Shown here: positions 7,256 through 57,719 of the stretch, in pieces | Layout of the letters: each line of letters opens with the position of its first letter | Numbering within the stretch: position 1 is the first letter of the stretch | NCBI GenBank assembly: GCA_037446815.1 | Contig: JBBIHX010000002.1 | Coordinates: 7,641 to 71,640, forward strand | Length of the DNA: 64,000 nucleotides | DNA from: Caldilineae bacterium | Lineage (GTDB): Bacteria; Chloroflexota; Anaerolineae; DTLA01 | Reading direction: 5' to 3' | The notes under the pieces: model-generated | Seen by the model: the letters and a program-made list of their open reading frames with translations, nothing else | Databases searched by the model: none | What the model was told of the DNA's origin: nothing | Translations under genes and position numbers: made by a program

Positions 7256-7427
7256 TTTGCATGCCCTCCCATGCAAGGGGAACCTATCCGCGCCCAGGCT
7301 GGTGTGGCTGGTCCACCGCACCCTGCCGATGCAGCAGCGTGGATGATACTCACCATAGCACGAACACAACAAACCGTCAAGGCGCGCACGCCACGCCGCG
7401 CCGCTGCGCCCAGGCGTCCTCTGGTAC

Positions 7428-7530
7428 TGCCATTGCGAGGGCACGGAGCGCCTGAAGCAACCCCTGGGAACTGTCATTCTGAGCGGCGAAGCCGCGAAGA
7501 ATCTAGGCCACCGAGAGGCTTCGCCTACAT
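7428..7530. repeat. Composite/degenerate repeat with a family-A half (cattgcgagggcacggagcgcctgaagcaacc) joined to a family-B half (ctgtcattctgagcggcgaagccgcgaagaatc...ggcttcgcc)
   Basis: Sequence identity to cores of repeats elsewhere in the window. A terminus-like fragment ccaacacaagccgaacc lies at 7568-7585. Confidence 0.6.
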
Positions 7531-7603
7531 CCCAGCATGGCACAGGGAGAAGCAACGTGCGGGCCACCCAACACAAGCCGAACCCGGCTCACGTTCTCTC
7601 AAG

Positions 7604-7751
7604 TCGGTCCCAAAGTCTGTTGGTGGCTGTCATTGCGAGGGCACGCAGTGCCCGAAGCAATCCCCGGGGCGTGGGGTTGCTTCGCTTCGCTCGCAATGAC
7701 ACACGAGGAGAGTGCGCCTACGGTTCCCCAACACAAGATGAAACCGACTCC
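7604..7751 (+). repeat. Family-A palindromic MITE/REP-like element, copy A1
   Basis: tcggtcccaaagtctgttgg...gtcattgcgagggcacgcagtgcccgaagcaatc...ggttgcttcgcttcgctcgcaatgac...ccaacacaagatgaaaccgactcc. Internal inverted repeats; near-identical to copies A2-A5. Confidence 0.85.
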
Positions 7752-7839
7752 TTCCCTCGGCGCGGTTGACGCCGGCGCTGCGCATCCGCTATAATTGCCA
7801 CGACAACCCATCCAAACCCTGCACAAAGGAGGTCTTCCC

Positions 7840-18004: not shown

Positions 18005-18060
18005 TGTGGCGGCTTTGGCCCAGGGCAGGGGACGCCCAATCGCGCCCAGCGCGAATGGAT

Positions 18061-18208
18061 TCGGTTCCAAAGTCTGTTGGTATTTGTCATTGCGAGGGCG
18101 CGGAGCGCCCGAAGCAATCTCTGGGGCGTGAGGTTGCTTCGCTTCGCTCGCAACGACACACGAGGAGAGTGTCCACGCGTTTCACCAACACAAGATGAAA
18201 CCGACTCC
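18061..18208 (+). repeat. Family-A palindromic MITE/REP-like element, copy A2
   Basis: Same termini and internal hairpins as A1. It lies immediately downstream of gene 17507..18004. Confidence 0.85.
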
Positions 18209-18222
18209 GCGAATGCGGCGAA

Positions 18223-18251
18223 TTGACATTTTCAGCCACCTGCGGTACACT
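18223..18251 (+). promoter_or_regulatory. Putative sigma70-type promoter (-35 TTGACA, 17-nt spacer, -10 TACACT) for the CpXC gene
   Basis: Consensus-like hexamers ~135 nt upstream of ATG 18386. Confidence 0.45.
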
Positions 18252-18385
18252 GACCACAGGCCTGCGGACCAGCGCAGGCCAAAATGCTGTGAACGACCGC
18301 CACGGGCGCGGTCCAGGGACGAATCCAGCCGAACCTCGGCGGGGGCCGGCCTTGCCCGTGAACTGCCCGACGAAAGGAATCAAGT

Positions 18386-19723
18386 ATGCTGAATCAAGGA
18401 ATCACCCCAGCGACCTGCAGCCGATGTGGCCACCAGTTTGGCGCAACCGCCGAACGCATCCTGGACCTGGAGAAAGACCCAACGGCGAAAACCCGCCTCC
18501 TATCCGGGCGCGTGAACGTGGCGCGGTGTCCCGCCTGTGGGGCCGAAGGTGCGCTGAACCTGCCATTCGTGTATCACGACCGATCCAAGGAGTTGCTTCT
18601 GGCCTACATGCCGCCGTCCTTTGGGGCCAACGAAACCGAACGCCAGCGCGTGCTGGGTGAACTCACCAACGCCGTGATGAACTCGCTGCCGCCCGAGCAC
18701 CGCAAGGCCTACCTCCTCCAGCCCAAGATGTTCTTCACCATGCAGAGCATGGCCGAGACCATTCTCCAGGCCGACGGCGTTACCAAGGAGATGATGGACG
18801 CCCAGCGGGCGCACGTGGACCTCATCAACGAGATGCTCCAGGCCAGAGACCCCTCGGCATTCCAGCAGGTGGTAGATGAGCACCGCGACCAGATTGACTA
18901 CGACTTCTTCCAGACGCTGGCGGCCTCCACGGAAGCAGCCCAGGCCAACGGCCAGGAACGCGTGGCCCAGGTGCTCAACTCGCTGAGCCTTTGGCTCATA
19001 CAAGAATTCGGCCTCCCCGTGGGAGAAGAGATGGCGGGTGAGGGCAGCAAGGGTCTCCTGACCCGCGAGCGACTTGTCTCGCTCCTGGAAAAAGCGGAGG
19101 AAGATGACGATTTCCGTACCCTGGTCAGCCTCGGGCGTCCGCTGATGGATTACACCTTCTTCCAGGAACTCACTGCCCAGATAGAGGCGGCCAAGGCCCT
19201 CGGCGAAGAGGGCCGGGCAAAGCGACTGGAGAACCTGCGCGCGCGAGTCGTGCAGACGGCCGAGGAGATGGAAGCCGCGTCCAAGCAGGTTATCAACCAG
19301 GCCGCATCGCTCCTCAGCGGCGCGCTCCAGGCCGACGATCCCGAAGCCTACATGCGCGAGCATCTGGGCGAGATCAGCGAGGCGTTCTTTGTCGTGTTGA
19401 GCGCGAACCTCAACGCCGCCGAGCGCGAGGGCCAGCAGCAATGGGTGGAGAAGATGGAACGCATCGGCGACATCGCCCTGCGGCTCATCCAGGAGGCGGC
19501 GCCGCCGGAGGTGCAACTGCTCAACCAACTGATGGCAGCGCCGTACCCCGACGGCACGCTCCAGGTCTTGCGGGAGAACGCGGCGCTGGTTACGTCGGAA
19601 CTCCTGGATGCCATGGCAATCATCGCCGACGACCTCGTGCGACAGGGGAACCTACCCGCCGCCGACAAGGTCAAGAAGGTGCTGGCCCAGGCCGAAACGC
19701 TCGCAGCAGACACGAAGGCGTAA
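18386..19723 (+). CDS. CpXC-domain zinc-ribbon protein with long alpha-helical C-terminal region
   Basis: N-terminal CSRCGHQF...CPACG (CxxC/CPxC), then ~380 aa helical repeats. RBS aaagga. Confidence 0.7.
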   Translation: MLNQGITPATCSRCGHQFGATAERILDLEKDPTAKTRLLSGRVNVARCPACGAEGALNLPFVYHDRSKELLLAYMPPSFGANETERQRVLGELTNAVMNSLPPEHRKAYLLQPKMFFTMQSMAETILQADGVTKEMMDAQRAHVDLINEMLQARDPSAFQQVVDEHRDQIDYDFFQTLAASTEAAQANGQERVAQVLNSLSLWLIQEFGLPVGEEMAGEGSKGLLTRERLVSLLEKAEEDDDFRTLVSLGRPLMDYTFFQELTAQIEAAKALGEEGRAKRLENLRARVVQTAEEMEAASKQVINQAASLLSGALQADDPEAYMREHLGEISEAFFVVLSANLNAAEREGQQQWVEKMERIGDIALRLIQEAAPPEVQLLNQLMAAPYPDGTLQVLRENAALVTSELLDAMAIIADDLVRQGNLPAADKVKKVLAQAETLAADTKA

Positions 19724-19748
19724 ATCCGGCGCCCTATCAAGGCGCGAC

Positions 19749-19894
19749 TCGGTTCCAAAGTCTGTTGGCATTTGTCATTGCGAGGGCGCTCCGCGCCCGA
19801 AGCAATCTCTGGGGCGTGAGGTTGCTTCGCTTCGCTCGCAACGACACGCGAGGAGAGTATTCATGCGTTTCACCAACACAAGATGAAACCGACT
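19749..19894 (+). repeat. Family-A palindromic MITE/REP-like element, copy A3
   Basis: Near-identical to A2. It begins 25 nt after the CpXC gene stop. Confidence 0.85.
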
Positions 19895-19907
19895 TAACGC
19901 GCACGGA

Positions 19908-19937
19908 TTGGACAAGCCTGCCGTTTTGTGATATACT
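19908..19937 (+). promoter_or_regulatory. Putative sigma70-type promoter (-35 TTGGAC, 18-nt spacer, -10 TATACT) for the ECF transporter operon
   Basis: Hexamers located by sequence. A ~160-nt leader follows, containing a short hairpin gaccgcaggatcggtc + TTTT at 20033..20052. Confidence 0.45.
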
Positions 19938-20102
19938 GATTCTGCCATCCACCGCACGGGCGGGGGTGAGCCTGAACGCCAAACGAATACTTTCCGCAGA
20001 TCCCAGGCGCTTGGATCCAACGCGACCGAGACGACCGCAGGATCGGTCTTTTCATCGCGGGTTCCCGGCTGCTGGGGCCCGCGATTCGTTTTGTGAGGGA
20101 CG

Positions 20103-22767: not shown

Positions 22768-23343
22768 ATGTCAACTGAAGCGGTCGTACAATCCACCCCG
22801 GCACGGAAGGTCGTCATCGCGGGCGTCATGGGGGCGCTCGCCATCTTCCTCGGCTGGACGCACCTGGGGTTCATCCCCTGGGTCGCGGGCGCGGCGCTCA
22901 CCATTATGCACGTGCCCGTCATCATCGGCGCGGTGCTGGAAGGGCCCATCGTGGGGACCGCCATCGGCCTCATCTTCGGCCTATTCAGCCTGCTCCAGGC
23001 GACTCTAGCCCCGACCGGCCCGGTGGACGTGTGGTTCCAGAACCCCGTCATCTCGGTCCTGCCACGGCTGTTCATCGGTGTCGTGGCGTGGCTAGGCTAC
23101 AAGGCGCTGAGAAAGGTCAACGAGCCACTGGCCCTTGCCGTGGCAGGAATCCTCGGCACTCTGACCAACACCGTCTTGGTGCTGGGGACCATCGGCTTGT
23201 TCGGCCACCTGCCCTGGGCCGCCCTGCCACCCATCGCCATCGCCAACGGCCTGCCCGAGGCGGTGCTGGCCGCCATCCTCACCGTCGCTGTCGTTGTAGC
23301 CTGGAAGCGGATTGAGACCGGCGCGCGCAAGTCGCGGATGTAG
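22768..23343 (+). CDS. ECF transporter substrate-specific (S) component; substrate unknown
   Basis: 191-aa, ~6-TM protein immediately after ecfT. RBS aaggaggg. Confidence 0.7.
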   Translation: MSTEAVVQSTPARKVVIAGVMGALAIFLGWTHLGFIPWVAGAALTIMHVPVIIGAVLEGPIVGTAIGLIFGLFSLLQATLAPTGPVDVWFQNPVISVLPRLFIGVVAWLGYKALRKVNEPLALAVAGILGTLTNTVLVLGTIGLFGHLPWAALPPIAIANGLPEAVLAAILTVAVVVAWKRIETGARKSRM

Positions 23344-23359
23344 AATCCGCACATCGTCA

Positions 23360-23388
23360 GTGGGGGCAGGTCTGAGGCCTGCCCCCAC
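23360..23388. terminator. Perfect 11-bp GC-rich hairpin (GTGGGGGCAGG-N7-CCTGCCCCCAC) between convergent genes
   Basis: Seen directly in the sequence. It lies between the ecfS stop (23343) and the hepT stop (23420). No strong U-tract follows. Confidence 0.5.
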
Positions 23389-23419
23389 TTCACCTGCGCA
23401 TTTCACGCCGGTTGACGAC

Positions 23420-23770
23420 TCACTCGGGCCTCAAACCTTCGTGCGGCAACAAGGATTCTATCTTGCCCAACAACTCGGGCACGTCCCTTGTTGCTGTCCT
23501 CCACACTTCATCCCAGTCCACCACATCATATCCATGAATGAGATGGTCTCGCATTCCTGCTATCAGTGCCCAGGGGATCTCTGAATGGCGCAGGCGCAGC
23601 GCAGCGGACAATCGTTTGACCGCCTCTCCCATCACAATCAGTTGATAAAGCACGGCCGACTGGGTCTTGTAATCCTCCAGGAATTCCTCCTTACGCAGGC
23701 CCTCCACGAATGCCAGCACGGCCCGCGCCGCCCTCGCAATATCCAGTAGAGTGCCTTCATCTCGTCCCAT
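23420..23770 (-). CDS. hepT: HepT-like toxin (DUF86, nucleotidyltransferase-substrate-binding fold)
   Basis: 116 aa. It overlaps the upstream NTase gene by 14 nt, the typical MntA/HepT organisation. Confidence 0.75.
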   Translation of the reverse strand: MGRDEGTLLDIARAARAVLAFVEGLRKEEFLEDYKTQSAVLYQLIVMGEAVKRLSAALRLRHSEIPWALIAGMRDHLIHGYDVVDWDEVWRTATRDVPELLGKIESLLPHEGLRPE

Positions 23771-24095
23771 GGGCCACCTCGTTTCTGGGAAAGAGCACAG
23801 TGGCCGTGCGCAGGATGTCCTTGCGGCGCACCCAATTCTCGCTGTTTTCTACAGCGCGCCTGGTTACCAGGTCCACGTCTCGCTGGAGGAGGTCTTGAAG
23901 TTCCTGCTCCATCCTGATATGATCAAGGAGGCTCCAGTCCGAGTCATCCTCAAAAGTTACCATCACATCAACATCGCTCTCTGGGCTAAAATCGGCGCGC
24001 AACACAGAACCAAATACCGCCAGTTCGCGAATCTTCCAACGCTGACAGAAATCCGCGATGTCCGCCATCGGAAGAATATCCAACACATTGACCAT
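23757..24095 (-). CDS. mntA: MntA-like minimal nucleotidyltransferase antitoxin (Pol-beta superfamily)
   Basis: GS...D.D motif (LAVFGSVLRADFSPESDVDVMV). The start is placed at MVNVLD (ORF codon 25). The tool ORF extends to 24167. Confidence 0.75.
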   Translation of the reverse strand: MVNVLDILPMADIADFCQRWKIRELAVFGSVLRADFSPESDVDVMVTFEDDSDWSLLDHIRMEQELQDLLQRDVDLVTRRAVENSENWVRRKDILRTATVLFPRNEVAHGTR

Positions 24096-24323
24096 CTCGC
24101 GCTGCCTCACACTCTGAACACCCTTACGGAAACCAACTGCGCACGTCAGATTATACCAAGCCGGCATCCGCTGTCAAGGCTTTCGCGCGCTCCGGCGCTC
24201 CTCATCATCCTGGGCGTCGGCCTTGCCCGCCTATCGGGATTCCGAGAGACACCATGCCGCCAGTTGCCGCGTTCCGCCCGTGTGCGTATAATCCGCACGC
24301 ATGCCCACCGGAGGACAACACGC

Positions 24324-24689
24324 ATGGATTATCACATCCGCACCCTTGCAGACATAGACGCGAAGCGCATTGAGGAAAAATGGGGAAGCCTGCGTTGGAT
24401 CGCAGGCCGGGACATCGGCAACGCTGAAGGCGTAGTCGTGGGCCGCGTCCTCATCAAGGTCGGCCACTCCAATCCCAGGCACAGCCACCCCAACTGCGAG
24501 GAGGTGCTCTACCTCTTGCGCGGGCGGCTGGAGCACACCGTGGGCGAGGAGAAGGTCATCACCGACGCGGGCGATGTCATCGTCGTGCCGCCAGGCGTCC
24601 CCCACATCGCCCGCAACATCGGCGACGAGGACGCCGACATGATCGTCGCCTACTCCGCCGGAGTCAGGGGATTTCGCCTGGAGCAGTAG
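24324..24689 (+). CDS. Cupin domain protein
   Basis: Cupin motifs G(X)5HSHP...E and G...PPGVPH. RBS ggagga precedes ATG 24324. The tool ORF starts at 23751. Confidence 0.7.
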   Translation: MDYHIRTLADIDAKRIEEKWGSLRWIAGRDIGNAEGVVVGRVLIKVGHSNPRHSHPNCEEVLYLLRGRLEHTVGEEKVITDAGDVIVVPPGVPHIARNIGDEDADMIVAYSAGVRGFRLEQ

Positions 24690-25405: not shown

Positions 25406-25463
25406 CTTGCAACGCCATGCTACACGGCTAGGCGCGAAGCGTCAACCCAGCCCCTCGTTAGAT

Positions 25464-25608
25464 TCGGTTCCGCCTTGTGTTGGTCTGTCCCTCGCACCGC
25501 CTCTCTACTCTGTCATGCTGAGCCGGAGGCGAAGCATCTCGGCCAGCGGGATTCTTCGCTCTCCGCCGCTCAGAATGACAGTAGATGCCAACAGACTTTG
25601 GAACCGAG
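25464..25608 (+). repeat. Repeat with family-A termini (ttcggttccgccttgtgttgg ... ccaacagactttggaaccga) but a family-B-like internal palindrome (gtcatgctgagccggaggcgaagcatc / gattcttcgc...gctcagaatgac)
   Basis: Direct sequence comparison with the other copies. Confidence 0.7.
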
Positions 25609-25682
25609 CCGGAAAGGCGCAGGATTTGTAACCGCTCTGTAACTGCGTTGTGCTATCATAAAATCGCGGTTCGGAGGGAACG

Positions 25683-40179: not shown

Positions 40180-40252
40180 GCCGAGGTAGCTCAGTTGGAA
40201 GAGCACATCACTGAAAATGATGGGGTCCCCAGTTCAAATCTGGGCTTCGGCA
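40180..40252 (+). tRNA. tRNA-Phe (anticodon GAA)
   Basis: Cloverleaf folded by hand: acceptor GCCGAGG/CTTCGGC, anticodon loop CTGAAAA, T-arm GGTCC/GGGCT. Confidence 0.85.
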
Positions 40253-40257
40253 CCTGG

Positions 40258-40329
40258 GCGGAAGTGGCTCAGCGGTAGAGCATCTCCTTGCCAAGGAGAG
40301 GGTCGCGGGTTCAAATCCCGTCTTCCGCT
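40258..40329 (+). tRNA. tRNA-Gly (anticodon GCC)
   Basis: Acceptor GCGGAAG/CTTCCGC, anticodon loop TTGCCAA. Confidence 0.85.
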
Positions 40330-40344
40330 CCTTTTATTGTCCAG

Positions 40345-40418
40345 GGCGACGTAGCCAAGTGGCAAGGCAGGGGTCTGCAAAACCCCGATCGCGGGTTCAA
40401 GTCCCGCCGTCGCCTCCA
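40345..40418 (+). tRNA. tRNA-Cys (anticodon GCA), CCA encoded
   Basis: Acceptor GGCGACG/CGTCGCC, anticodon loop CTGCAAA, 3' TCCA. Confidence 0.85.
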
Positions 40419-40480
40419 AAAGGCTGTCATTCCGGTGGCAGCCTTTGTTTTTCGCCCCCAAGCATCCCCAACATGACGAC

Positions 40481-40727
40481 TCGGTTCCAAAGCCCGCCGG
40501 CGCCTGCTGTCATTCTGAGCGGCGAAGCCGCGAAGAGTCTCGCGCCCCCGATTCGCGCAATCCGTAGTATCCGTGGATTCCGTTTCCCCATTCCCGTATT
40601 TCGTGCCATTTGCGGTTACTGCTGTTATTCCGAGCGGCGAAGCCGCGAAGAGTCTCGCCCCTCACCCCAGCCCTCTCCCGAAGGGCGAGGGCGTATCGCC
40701 TTCGGCTCAGCATGACAAGACGCAACC
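40481..40727. repeat. tRNA-adjacent composite repeat: family-A-type terminus (tcggttccaaagcc) followed by two family-B cores (tgtcattctgagcggcgaagccgcgaagagtctcgc; tgttattccgagcggcgaagccgcgaagagtctcgcc) and an inverted partner (gccttcggctcagcatgacaag)
   Basis: Sequence comparison with the elements at 7471-7525 and 25464-25608. ORFs predicted here (40359..40715 etc.) are considered spurious. Confidence 0.65.
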
Positions 40728-46930: not shown

Positions 46931-47070
46931 GACGTTACCTCCTGATGCGATGCCTTCTCGTTCCACCGCACATGATACCCCACCTATGCGAGTTTTGCAA
47001 AGCCCATTCACACGGAACTGAAACCGCACCCGTGCCGTTCACCAACACAGCCCCGAATCACGCCCTGGAC

Positions 47071-47216
47071 TCGGTTCCAAACTGTGTTGGTGAAACGCAG
47101 ACACACTCTCCTCACGTGTCATTGCGAGCGAAGCGAAGCAATCGCACGTCCCGGAGATTGCTTCGGGCGCTCCGCGCCCTCGCAATGACAGCCACCAACA
47201 GACTTTGGAACCGAAC
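47071..47216 (-). repeat. Family-A palindromic element, copy A4 (inverted relative to A1-A3)
   Basis: tcggttccaaactgtgttggtgaa...gtcattgcgagcgaagcgaagcaatc...gattgcttcgggcgctccgcgccctcgcaatgac...ccaacagactttggaaccga. Confidence 0.85.
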
Positions 47217-47327
47217 CACGCCCTGCACGCCTTTGACAAAGGGCCGTCCGGATAGTAGAATGCGTCCAGATGGCCCATCTGCCGGGACTCGGCCCGATGG
47301 CCATCCCGACAACTCCGGAGATCTTCT

Positions 47328-57463: not shown

Positions 57464-57547
57464 CTCACACCTCCGTTGACGCAAATTGCCTTCACGAAGC
57501 AGTATAGCACAAACTGCGGCGCAGGGAAAGACCCTTTCGGGCAGGAG

Positions 57548-57694
57548 TCGGTTTGATCTTGTGTTGGTGAACCGTAGACGCACTCTCCTCGTGTGTCATT
57601 GCGAGCGAAGCGAAGCAATCCCACGCCCCGGAGATTGCTTCGGGCACTGCGTGCCCTCGCAATGACGGGTACCAACAGACTTTGGAACCGACTC
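57548..57694 (-). repeat. Family-A palindromic element, copy A5 (inverted)
   Basis: tcggtttgatcttgtgttggtgaa...gtcattgcgagcgaagcgaagcaatc...gattgcttcgggcactgcgtgccctcgcaatgac...ccaacagactttggaaccgactc. It lies between pfk and the DUF362 gene. Confidence 0.85.
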
Positions 57695-57719
57695 TCGGGC
57701 AGGCCACGCGATGCCCTCG

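Follow-up and report, generated by a model that had tools for sequence, protein, structure and literature searches.

A CpXC-domain gene between two miniature inverted-repeat elements in a Caldilineae bacterium: probably a resident gene with a separate insertion on each side

Transposable elements of the miniature inverted-repeat kind (MITEs) derived from insertion sequences (ISs) are known in bacteria, the Correia elements of Neisseria being one example. Some eukaryotic transposons integrate close to promoters, such as Ty3 (at Pol III start sites) and Tf1, maize Mutator and rice mPing (near gene 5' ends), and Mutator transposases are the eukaryotic relatives of IS256. MITEPsy1 and MITEPsy2 of Pseudomonas syringae are about 150 bp long and non-coding, have imperfect inverted repeats identical to those of a full-length IS, are flanked by target-site duplications, occur in multiple intergenic copies and fold into long hairpins, and elements of the IS256 family make target duplications of 8-9 bp (PMC3189936). 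IS5 and IS1 are found to insert at defined sites upstream of the silent Escherichia coli promoters glpFK, bgl and fucAO (PMC2753651, PMC11043490, PMC11894529). Here we describe a 149-bp repeat that shares all the listed features of MITEPsy1/2, in a stretch of 64,000 nt from a Caldilineae bacterium (assembly GCA_037446815.1, contig JBBIHX010000002.1, positions 7,641 to 71,640; hereafter the 64-kb window), where two of its copies, A2 and A3, bracket a single gene for a CpXC-domain protein. The repeat differs from MITEPsy1/2 in that its termini come from a so far unnamed Chloroflexota branch of Mutator/IS256-type ISs, its interior consists of two GC-rich hairpin modules (GTCATTGCGAG...CGAAGCAATC) that are also found alone elsewhere, and its insertion point lies at a fixed few bp upstream of -35 boxes. 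We put at roughly 90% the probability that the CpXC gene is a resident gene flanked by two separate MITE insertions, and not a mobile cassette.

The features of the locus, all on the + strand, are as follows:

18049-18057, + strand: left target-site duplication of A2, GCGCGAATG, an 8/9 match to 18207-18215
18058-18206, + strand: MITE copy A2, a non-coding element of 149 bp whose terminal inverted repeats, TCGGTTCCAAAGTCTGTTGG and CCAACACAAGATGAAACCGA, are imperfect
18207-18215, + strand: right target-site duplication of A2, CCGCGAATG
18223-18251, + strand: sigma-70-like promoter of the CpXC gene, TTGACA-17-TACACT (10/12), outside A2 and 7 bp past the duplication
18386-19723, + strand: CpXC-domain gene, 445 aa, with an N-terminal zinc ribbon/beta domain (two CxxC motifs) and a C-terminal alpha-helical repeat region
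19737-19745, + strand: left target-site duplication of A3, TCAAGGCGC, degenerate (7/9 against 19894-19902, TTAACGCGC, with the register shifted by 1 nt)
19746-19894, + strand: MITE copy A3, 149 bp, in the orientation of A2 and 94% identical to it
19909-19937, + strand: promoter of the energy-coupling factor (ECF) transporter operon, TGGACA-17-TATACT with a TG extension, its -35 box starting 16 nt from the A3 terminus; kept in MITE-free relatives

Much of this layout had been recognised in the first-pass annotation of the DNA, made from the letters alone. Two same-orientation repeat copies do flank the one gene (A2 and A3, both on the + strand, are 94.0% identical over 149 nt, with a longest identical run of 55 nt); the boundaries it gave, 18061 and 19894, correspond to the T that opens the terminal TCGG of A2 and to the base that closes A3. 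The gene has the promoter of its own and the CpXC domain (PF14353, E=1.4e-20) that were proposed for it, and its context is likewise as described: upstream are a lipoprotein gene (lipobox LLLAAC) and then a gene for a protein with four transmembrane segments, and downstream is the ECF operon, encoding a fused ATPase, a CbiQ-type T component and an S component.

What the bracketing means was decided by comparison with relatives. The loci compared are those of the closest CpXC homologues (84-88% amino acid identity; L001-L011 and L020-L022), from nine Anaerolineae lineages, grouped in our list as L001/2/3/4/5, L006/7, L008, L009, L010/11, L020, L021 and L022. The gene order is common to the nine lineages (a 229-aa gene, a 207-aa lipoprotein gene, a 165/177-aa membrane protein gene and CpXC), and the genes for the ECF ATPase, CbiQ and the S component follow in eight of them, L009 having an AAA/VWA pair instead. 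Neither nhmmer searches nor comparison of the spacers found a MITE on either side of CpXC in any of the nine. The spacers on the two sides of the gene measure 147-235 bp and 196-325 bp in the relatives (405 bp in L009), against 381 and 379 bp in the window. In a blastn comparison with L008, colinearity is broken at 18005-18220 and 19724-19906 only; in L008 the -35 box of the ECF promoter comes directly after the stop codon of CpXC, and 19724-19906 of the window is without a counterpart. The spacer between CpXC and its downstream gene also varies between lineages through other small repeat-like insertions (L009 and L021; statements on L021 are descriptive only, the pattern search for hairpin modules having missed degenerate modules there). 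Thus the synteny check that the first-pass annotation had itself suggested, once run, shows the gene kept at its locus in repeat-free relatives, the outcome it had named as one that would refute its proposal of a composite, cassette-like mobilisable unit.

The promoters, too, are older than the repeats. The -10 box of the CpXC promoter and the hairpin in the 5' untranslated region (UTR) are present in all nine lineages, and the TTGACA -35 box (as TTGACA-16/17-TACACT) in the eight for which the annotated spacer extends as far as that box. The promoter and leader of the ECF operon are kept in seven lineages; in L009 the downstream gene differs, and the L022 contig ends 22 nt past CpXC.

The second line of evidence comes from the target-site duplications. 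A 9-bp direct repeat flanks each of the five close copies of the element in the window (9/9 for A4 and A5, 8/9 for A2, 7/9 for A1 and A3), in a register common to the copies, 3 nt before TCGG and 2 nt after CCGA. When flanks of different copies are paired as a control, the match is at most 7/9 and the registers are arbitrary; the outer flanks of the pair, left of A2 and right of A3, reach 7/9 at best, out of register, and there is no duplication around the whole pair. The conserved MITE-free locus, the separate duplication of each copy and the mismatched outer flanks together argue that the pair is not a mobile unit. The sequences before insertion are predicted to have been ...CCCAGCGCGAATGCGGCGAATTGACA... 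for A2 and ...CTATCAAGGCGC(G)ACGGATTGGACA... for A3. Bracketing by an adjacent same-orientation pair is statistically not unusual: random placement of 5-7 elements in 45-65 intergenic gaps gives such a pair in 14-37% of simulations.

The copies were located by repeat search, MAFFT alignment and an nhmmer profile search of the window, which together yield five close copies and one diverged copy. Besides A2 and A3 these are:

7601-7749, + strand: MITE copy A1, with target-site duplication 7592-7600 / 7750-7758 (7/9) and a TTGACG-18-TATAAT promoter from 7766
47068-47216, - strand: MITE copy A4, with duplication CACGCCCTG (9/9; 47059-47067 / 47217-47225) and a TTGACA-17-TAGAAT promoter from 47233
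57546-57694, - strand: MITE copy A5, with duplication TCGGGCAGG (9/9; 57537-57545 / 57695-57703) and an extended -10 TGTGCTATACT on the minus strand
~25461-25611, - strand: diverged full-length MITE copy, with termini as in the other copies, a different interior and a minus-strand promoter whose -35 box is at 25445
7422-7476 and 40479-40535: MITE fragments

The 149-bp repeat is a MITE. It has no coding capacity, being crossed by shadow open reading frames (ORFs) only; its terminal inverted repeats match at 15 of 20 positions (TCGGTTCCAAAGTCTGTTGG on the left against TCGGTTTCATCTTGTGTTGG, the right end reverse-complemented); its duplications are of constant length; its termini are shared with an IS; and orthologous sites exist without the element. 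The terminal 20-mer occurs seven times in the window, where shuffled sequences lead one to expect 0.01. Rfam has no match to it, either at the gathering threshold or at E<=1. A2 folds as a single long hairpin (DNA z=-4.1; RNA z=-3.5 for the + strand and z=-7.2 for the - strand). For the same copy (18058-18206), the RNA folding energy is -70.0 kcal/mol for the - strand against -60.2 kcal/mol for the + strand, and the better fold of minus-strand RNA indicates that most mismatches of the long hairpin are compatible with G-U pairing on just one of the two strands. In A3 (19790-19792) the inner hairpin has its loop reverse-complemented with respect to A2 (18102-18104), GCGC-TCC-GCGC against GCGC-GGA-GCGC, which is the apparent signature of a hairpin-loop inversion or a template switch. 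Compensatory changes in the stem of the inner hairpin (GGGCAC/GTGCCC) are present in A1 and A5.

Hairpin modules of the kind that make up the interior (GTCATTGCGAG...CGAAGCAATC and GTCATTCTGAG...CGAAGAATC) also occur without MITE termini: alone, paired, or in an array with a period of ~117 nt. Such sites are 7427-7510 and 40504-40661 in the window, 20280-20313 in L001, 18105-18380 in L006 and 3819-3874 in L009, and the modules are often at the same intergenic spot in different lineages. In the window, a cluster of three tRNA genes (40180-40415) is directly followed by a partial MITE terminus with two hairpin modules (40479-40661). Repetitive extragenic palindromic (REP) sequences are defined as 20-40-bp palindromes with a GTAG/CGTC head, mobilised by REP-associated tyrosine transposases (RAYTs; Y1 transposases) (PMC3733652); compared with REP sequences and bacterial interspersed mosaic elements, the modules are REP-like in size and also stand alone or in arrays, and they lack the GTAG/CGTC head.

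A parent for the MITE was sought by an exact scan for its terminus, with one genome per species; what follows refers to the matches listed. Among these, the terminus is found in metagenome-assembled genomes (MAGs) of Chloroflexia, Anaerolineae and Caldilineae, and the 20-nt terminus is carried by five MITEs (95-142 nt) in five other Chloroflexota MAGs, with unrelated interiors and 8-9-bp duplications of their own. Termini of the same type bound a 1.54-kb IS (L017, 3229-4773) with 31-nt inverted repeats and a transposase ORF of at least 409 aa (~430 aa); L019 holds a truncated copy of an IS of this type. The transposase matches PF00872 (Transposase_mut) with 23.6 bits (cut-off 21). It has at least 1412 homologues of ~430 aa. 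Most are on contigs of ~1.5 kb, the size to be expected of an IS, and of the 120 listed nearly all were already annotated with PF00872. NCBIfam scores are weak (33 for IS256 against an equivalog cut-off of 150, and 46 for ISH6 against 240), and there is a weak match to NF048018, the N-terminal four-Cys zinc domain of IS256. Scores so far under the equivalog cut-offs suggest a distant branch of IS256/ISH6. By these profile matches, the L017-type IS is a putative member of the Mutator/IS256 superfamily, its family rank not being settled; it is like the IS256 family and ISH6 in size (1.54 kb, where the family test asks for 1.3-1.5 kb), in its single ORF and in its ~30-bp inverted repeats, and the L017-type family is like IS256 in the length of its duplications (8-9 bp; PMC3189936 for IS256). 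No transposase gene is found in the 64-kb window, so the MITE copies here are non-autonomous. Scans of viral contigs for the MITE terminus and the transposase found nothing, nor did plasmid searches with the MITE (BLAST) and with the transposase (tblastn), or a scan of metagenomes for the MITE terminus plus core.

The two copies beside CpXC may not have come from afar independently: one of them could be derived from the other through a local event, whether a hop over a short range, gene conversion or segmental duplication. A2 and A3 have diagnostic variants in common, and their identity to each other is 94%, where that to the other copies is 84-87%. A1 and A5, however, are 93.3% identical although 50 kb apart and inverted, which indicates that subfamily structure suffices to account for the similarity of A2 and A3, proximity not being needed. 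Moreover, a short-range hop would still be an independent transposition and would not make the gene mobile. We regard a local origin as somewhat unlikely. Segmental duplication as the origin of A2 and A3 was considered and rejected, as their flanks and duplications differ.

The first-pass annotation had offered a hotspot for repeat insertion as the other possible explanation, and this idea finds support in a more specific form, with the hot spots lying just upstream of the two promoters. For every copy we counted the distance from the terminal TCGG/CCGA to the start of the outward-facing -35 box, calling a site promoter-like when at least 9/12 positions match the consensus. The copies in the window give:

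A1: -35 box starts 18 nt from the terminus, TTGACG-18-TATAAT
A2: -35 box starts 18 nt from the terminus, TTGACA-17-TACACT
A3: -35 box starts 16 nt from the terminus, TGGACA-17-TATACT
A4, other orientation: -35 box starts 18 nt from the terminus, TTGACA-17-TAGAAT
Diverged copy: -35 box starts 18 nt from the terminus, TTGACG-17-TAGCAT

In five out of six copies in the window, then, the terminus is followed outward, at 16-18 nt, by the start of the -35 box of a promoter-like site. The sixth, A5, lacks a good -35 box, and its extended -10 (TGTGCTATACT) is at the same distance. The coordinates of element terminus and -35 box are 7749/7766, 18206/18223, 19894/19909, 47216/47233 and 25461/25445, with the 57546 side for A5, and the duplicated 9-mer is 7 bp from the -35 hexamer (5-6 bp for A3). 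There are 23 promoter-like sites on both strands of the 64 kb, and 0.1% of positions satisfy the spacing rule; even supposing that insertions are confined to the 60 nt upstream of promoters, the binomial p for five out of six falling within a 3-nt band is ~2e-6. The promoters beside A2 and A3 were there before the elements, since they are present in MITE-free relatives. In other genomes, elements with these termini are placed as follows:

L012: duplication directly abuts TTGACG...TATACT
L013: TTTACG-16-TATAAT
L016: duplication overlaps TTGACA
L017, full IS: TTGACA-16-TACAAT
L019, truncated IS: TTGACA...TACAAT

For promoter adjacency, L014b is negative, and both L018 and L014a are ambiguous; the tally over all the elements examined comes to 10 clear cases, 3 ambiguous and 1 negative. 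The 9-bp staggered cut would lie 5-7 bp upstream of the -35 box in the window genome, and between -3 and +4 bp from it in the other genomes.

A tentative explanation, to which we give slightly less than an even chance, is that this IS/MITE family picks its targets by reading sigma-70-type promoters, with the 9-bp cut fixed a few bp upstream of the -35 box; the box could be recognised directly, or via promoter-bound RNA polymerase or sigma. Our literature search found locus-specific cases for IS5/IS1 and no general -35-guided IS, and to our knowledge, as far as we have searched, promoter-adjacent targeting is not a described property of IS256. The present family and the E. coli IS5/IS1 cases are alike in landing reproducibly just upstream of a promoter. 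But the latter are locus-specific, came up under selection and depend on bound regulators and on how the DNA is structured locally, whereas here the same short spacing from the -35 box is seen again at many unrelated promoters and in several genomes. The likeness to Ty3, Tf1, Mutator and mPing would be that the elements are steered to the upstream edge of transcription units and coding sequence is spared; the differences are the bacterial hosts, a bp-scale precision with respect to the -35 hexamer, and that no tethering factor has been identified.

The same adjacency could result from selection, if insertions were random and survived only in the small neutral gap from the end of an upstream gene to the next -35 box. 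In keeping with this, intergenic spacers are short (in L008 there is none between the CpXC stop codon and the -35 box). In a variant of the idea, which we weigh jointly with it, a protein that binds the terminal repeat, centred near -63, would modulate the promoter, and the MITE would be a portable regulatory module: the same terminal repeat would stand beside the promoter in either orientation of the element, both orientations are seen, and Correia-type MITEs are known to affect neighbouring genes. Selection in either form has to contend with the tightness of the spacing in the window (18, 18, 16, 18 and 18 nt, with the binomial p of ~2e-6 holding even within a 60-nt zone) and with the full and truncated ISs (L017 and L019), which show the same adjacency; that IS copies are also promoter-adjacent points to a property of the transposition machinery. 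We consider selection, in these two forms together, unlikely. Because the IS copies show the spacing too and the spacing is so tight, target choice is favoured as what promoter proximity may reflect, though the matter is not settled here.

Put together, the history that we propose would run as follows. The CpXC gene would be a vertically inherited single-gene transcription unit of the Anaerolineae lineage, next to which the 149-bp MITE transposed on two separate occasions: A2 would have entered the spacer between the upstream gene for the four-transmembrane-segment protein and the CpXC promoter, and A3 the spacer between the CpXC stop codon and the ECF operon promoter. The MITE would be moved in trans by a DDE transposase of the Mutator/IS256 type, whose recognition sites would be the terminal inverted repeats of the element and which would cut the target with a 9-bp stagger, and we infer that a transposase of this family acts, or has acted, in the window genome. 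The element family would land, or be retained, immediately upstream of sigma-70-type -35 boxes; CpXC lies between two closely spaced promoters, and with both of them hit it would become bracketed. As direct repeats with 55 nt as their longest identical run, A2 and A3 could at most be a substrate for homologous recombination deleting CpXC.

Several observations weigh against this account. Degenerate duplications flank A3 (7/9, in a register displaced by 1) and A1 (7/9), and the exact pre-insertion sites were not recovered, the closest relatives having ~87-88% DNA identity and diverged spacers. A partner transposase in the source organism is inferred, none being present in the window, the only part of its genome that could be read. 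A2 and A3 are each other's closest copies (94%), which a local hop or gene conversion would also fit. The adjacency rule is drawn from ~14 elements and from consensus promoter matches, not from mapped transcription starts.

Far less probable than any alternative above is a composite mobile unit, in which the MITE copies would be the ends of a compound transposon and CpXC with its promoter the cargo. Two 94%-identical copies do stand around exactly one gene and its promoter, as in composite transposons flanked by MITEs or ISs, and MITE pairs are said in PMC3189936, on the strength of its reference 56, to mobilise intervening DNA in other bacteria. But here each copy has a separate duplication, with mismatched outer flanks and none around the whole, and the gene is at the same MITE-free locus in nine lineages. 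No second instance of the A2-CpXC-A3 unit was found among the CpXC homologues, and a metagenome scan with a 32-mer of the CpXC promoter found nothing. The GC content of the gene (0.63-0.655, against a window mean of 0.645) is not anomalous, and its homologues, 33-88% identical across Anaerolineae, are as expected for a resident gene. Tested as a composite transposon, then, the pair has the two flanking copies, lacks the single outer duplication, and shows neither absence from the site in relatives nor a second locus. A horizontally acquired island is rejected on the normal GC content and conserved synteny. So is an integron gene cassette: the neighbours are membrane, lipoprotein and ECF genes with no integrase, and the repeats are inverted-ended with duplications, unlike attC. 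A structured RNA gene, or a terminator or insulator of transcription, in place of a transposon is a highly improbable reading of the repeat, for although its hairpin is strong (minus-strand RNA z=-7.2) and the inner stem shows compensatory changes between copies (GGGCGC/GCGCCC vs GGGCAC/GTGCCC), Rfam gives no match at E<=1, no T-tract follows the hairpin, the copies stand in both orientations relative to neighbour genes, and the inverted termini, 9-bp duplications, element-free relatives and IS-shared termini are hallmarks of a transposon.

A resident gene with a MITE on each side is in itself an ordinary finding, a consequence of a MITE-rich genome, and it carries a useful warning: in such genomes, repeat-bracketed genes are not evidence of mobility. 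The fixed promoter spacing is the only part that might surprise a specialist. If it does reflect target choice, the family would integrate into 'safe havens' under the guidance of promoters and with bp precision, a bacterial counterpart of promoter-proximal integration in the style of Ty3, Tf1 and Mutator, and the bracketing of single-gene transcription units such as CpXC would be explained. It would then bear on the persistence of transposons in compact genomes, on the evolution of promoter-upstream DNA and possibly on tools for promoter-directed insertion, and the MITE would be a cheap computational marker of promoters in the poorly studied Chloroflexota.

The CpXC protein matches PF14353 over residues 10-138 (73.9 bits; gathering score 25.4). 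It is like other PF14353 proteins in its two CxxC pairs (C11/C14 and C48/C51, all four cysteines being conserved at >=90% among 30 homologues) and in its beta-rich N-terminal domain; the subfamily differs from the others in an extra C-terminal helical-repeat extension of ~300 aa and in being largely confined to Anaerolineae/Chloroflexota. We detected 239 full-length homologues, mostly from Anaerolineae/Chloroflexota, from 88% down to ~33% identity, some with faint DUF8246 matches in the helical extension. For the protein itself and for an entry 100% identical to it, exact-sequence look-ups yielded no recorded contig. In the AlphaFold2 model (mean predicted local distance difference test score, pLDDT, of 86) the N-terminus is beta-rich to about residue 75 and helices run from residue 83 to the end; the all-helical part thus comes to ~305-360 aa, shorter than the ~380 aa first proposed. 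The first-pass annotation gave the protein no function, and none can be assigned now: NCBIfam and PADLOC yielded nothing useful, a sequence-profile search of the PDB nothing significant (best E=0.015, a designed helical protein), and Foldseek against the PDB only generic helical repeats of the tetratricopeptide type (E>=0.04, TM-score ~0.15). In distant Anaerolineae (L023 1-9401 and L025 170-6305) the CpXC gene stands among genes for FHA, Ser/Thr-kinase, PP2C, VWA and DnaJ proteins, neighbours that weakly hint at a role as a signalling or assembly scaffold. In L009 (4154-6607) it adjoins a MoxR-type AAA gene and a VWA gene.

Two predicted transcribed regions of the locus are conserved and lie outside the MITEs:

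18259-18280, + strand: conserved stem-loop at the start of the CpXC 5' UTR (predicted mRNA 5' end), with stem GGCCTGCG/CGCAGGCC and a variable loop
19938-20102, + strand: leader of the ECF operon, strongly conserved, carrying a pair of terminator-like hairpins and distinct from the MITE

Across all the relatives, the stem of the first is invariant and its loop variable, and a conserved GATGTGTTGTGA-like motif follows; the CpXC 5' UTR has no match in Rfam at the gathering threshold or at E<=1. Further downstream in the neighbourhood, a block of ~4.4 kb (genes for a hybrid-cluster protein, a ferredoxin and a pyridine-nucleotide oxidoreductase) sits between the ECF S component gene and a cupin gene in L001 (14808-19193) and L006 (12572-17005), and is missing in the window (23341-24337) and in L010. 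The ECF leader has no Rfam match at E<=1, and no covariation is seen among seven sequences. It is conserved far above the surrounding spacers (L001 11405-11568, L008 4914-5082, L010 11396-11583 and L021 7496-7660), and contains a variable-loop hairpin followed by two terminator-like stem-loops, at 20033-20048 and 20054-20085, each with a T-run; it is a candidate for an unclassified riboswitch or attenuator.

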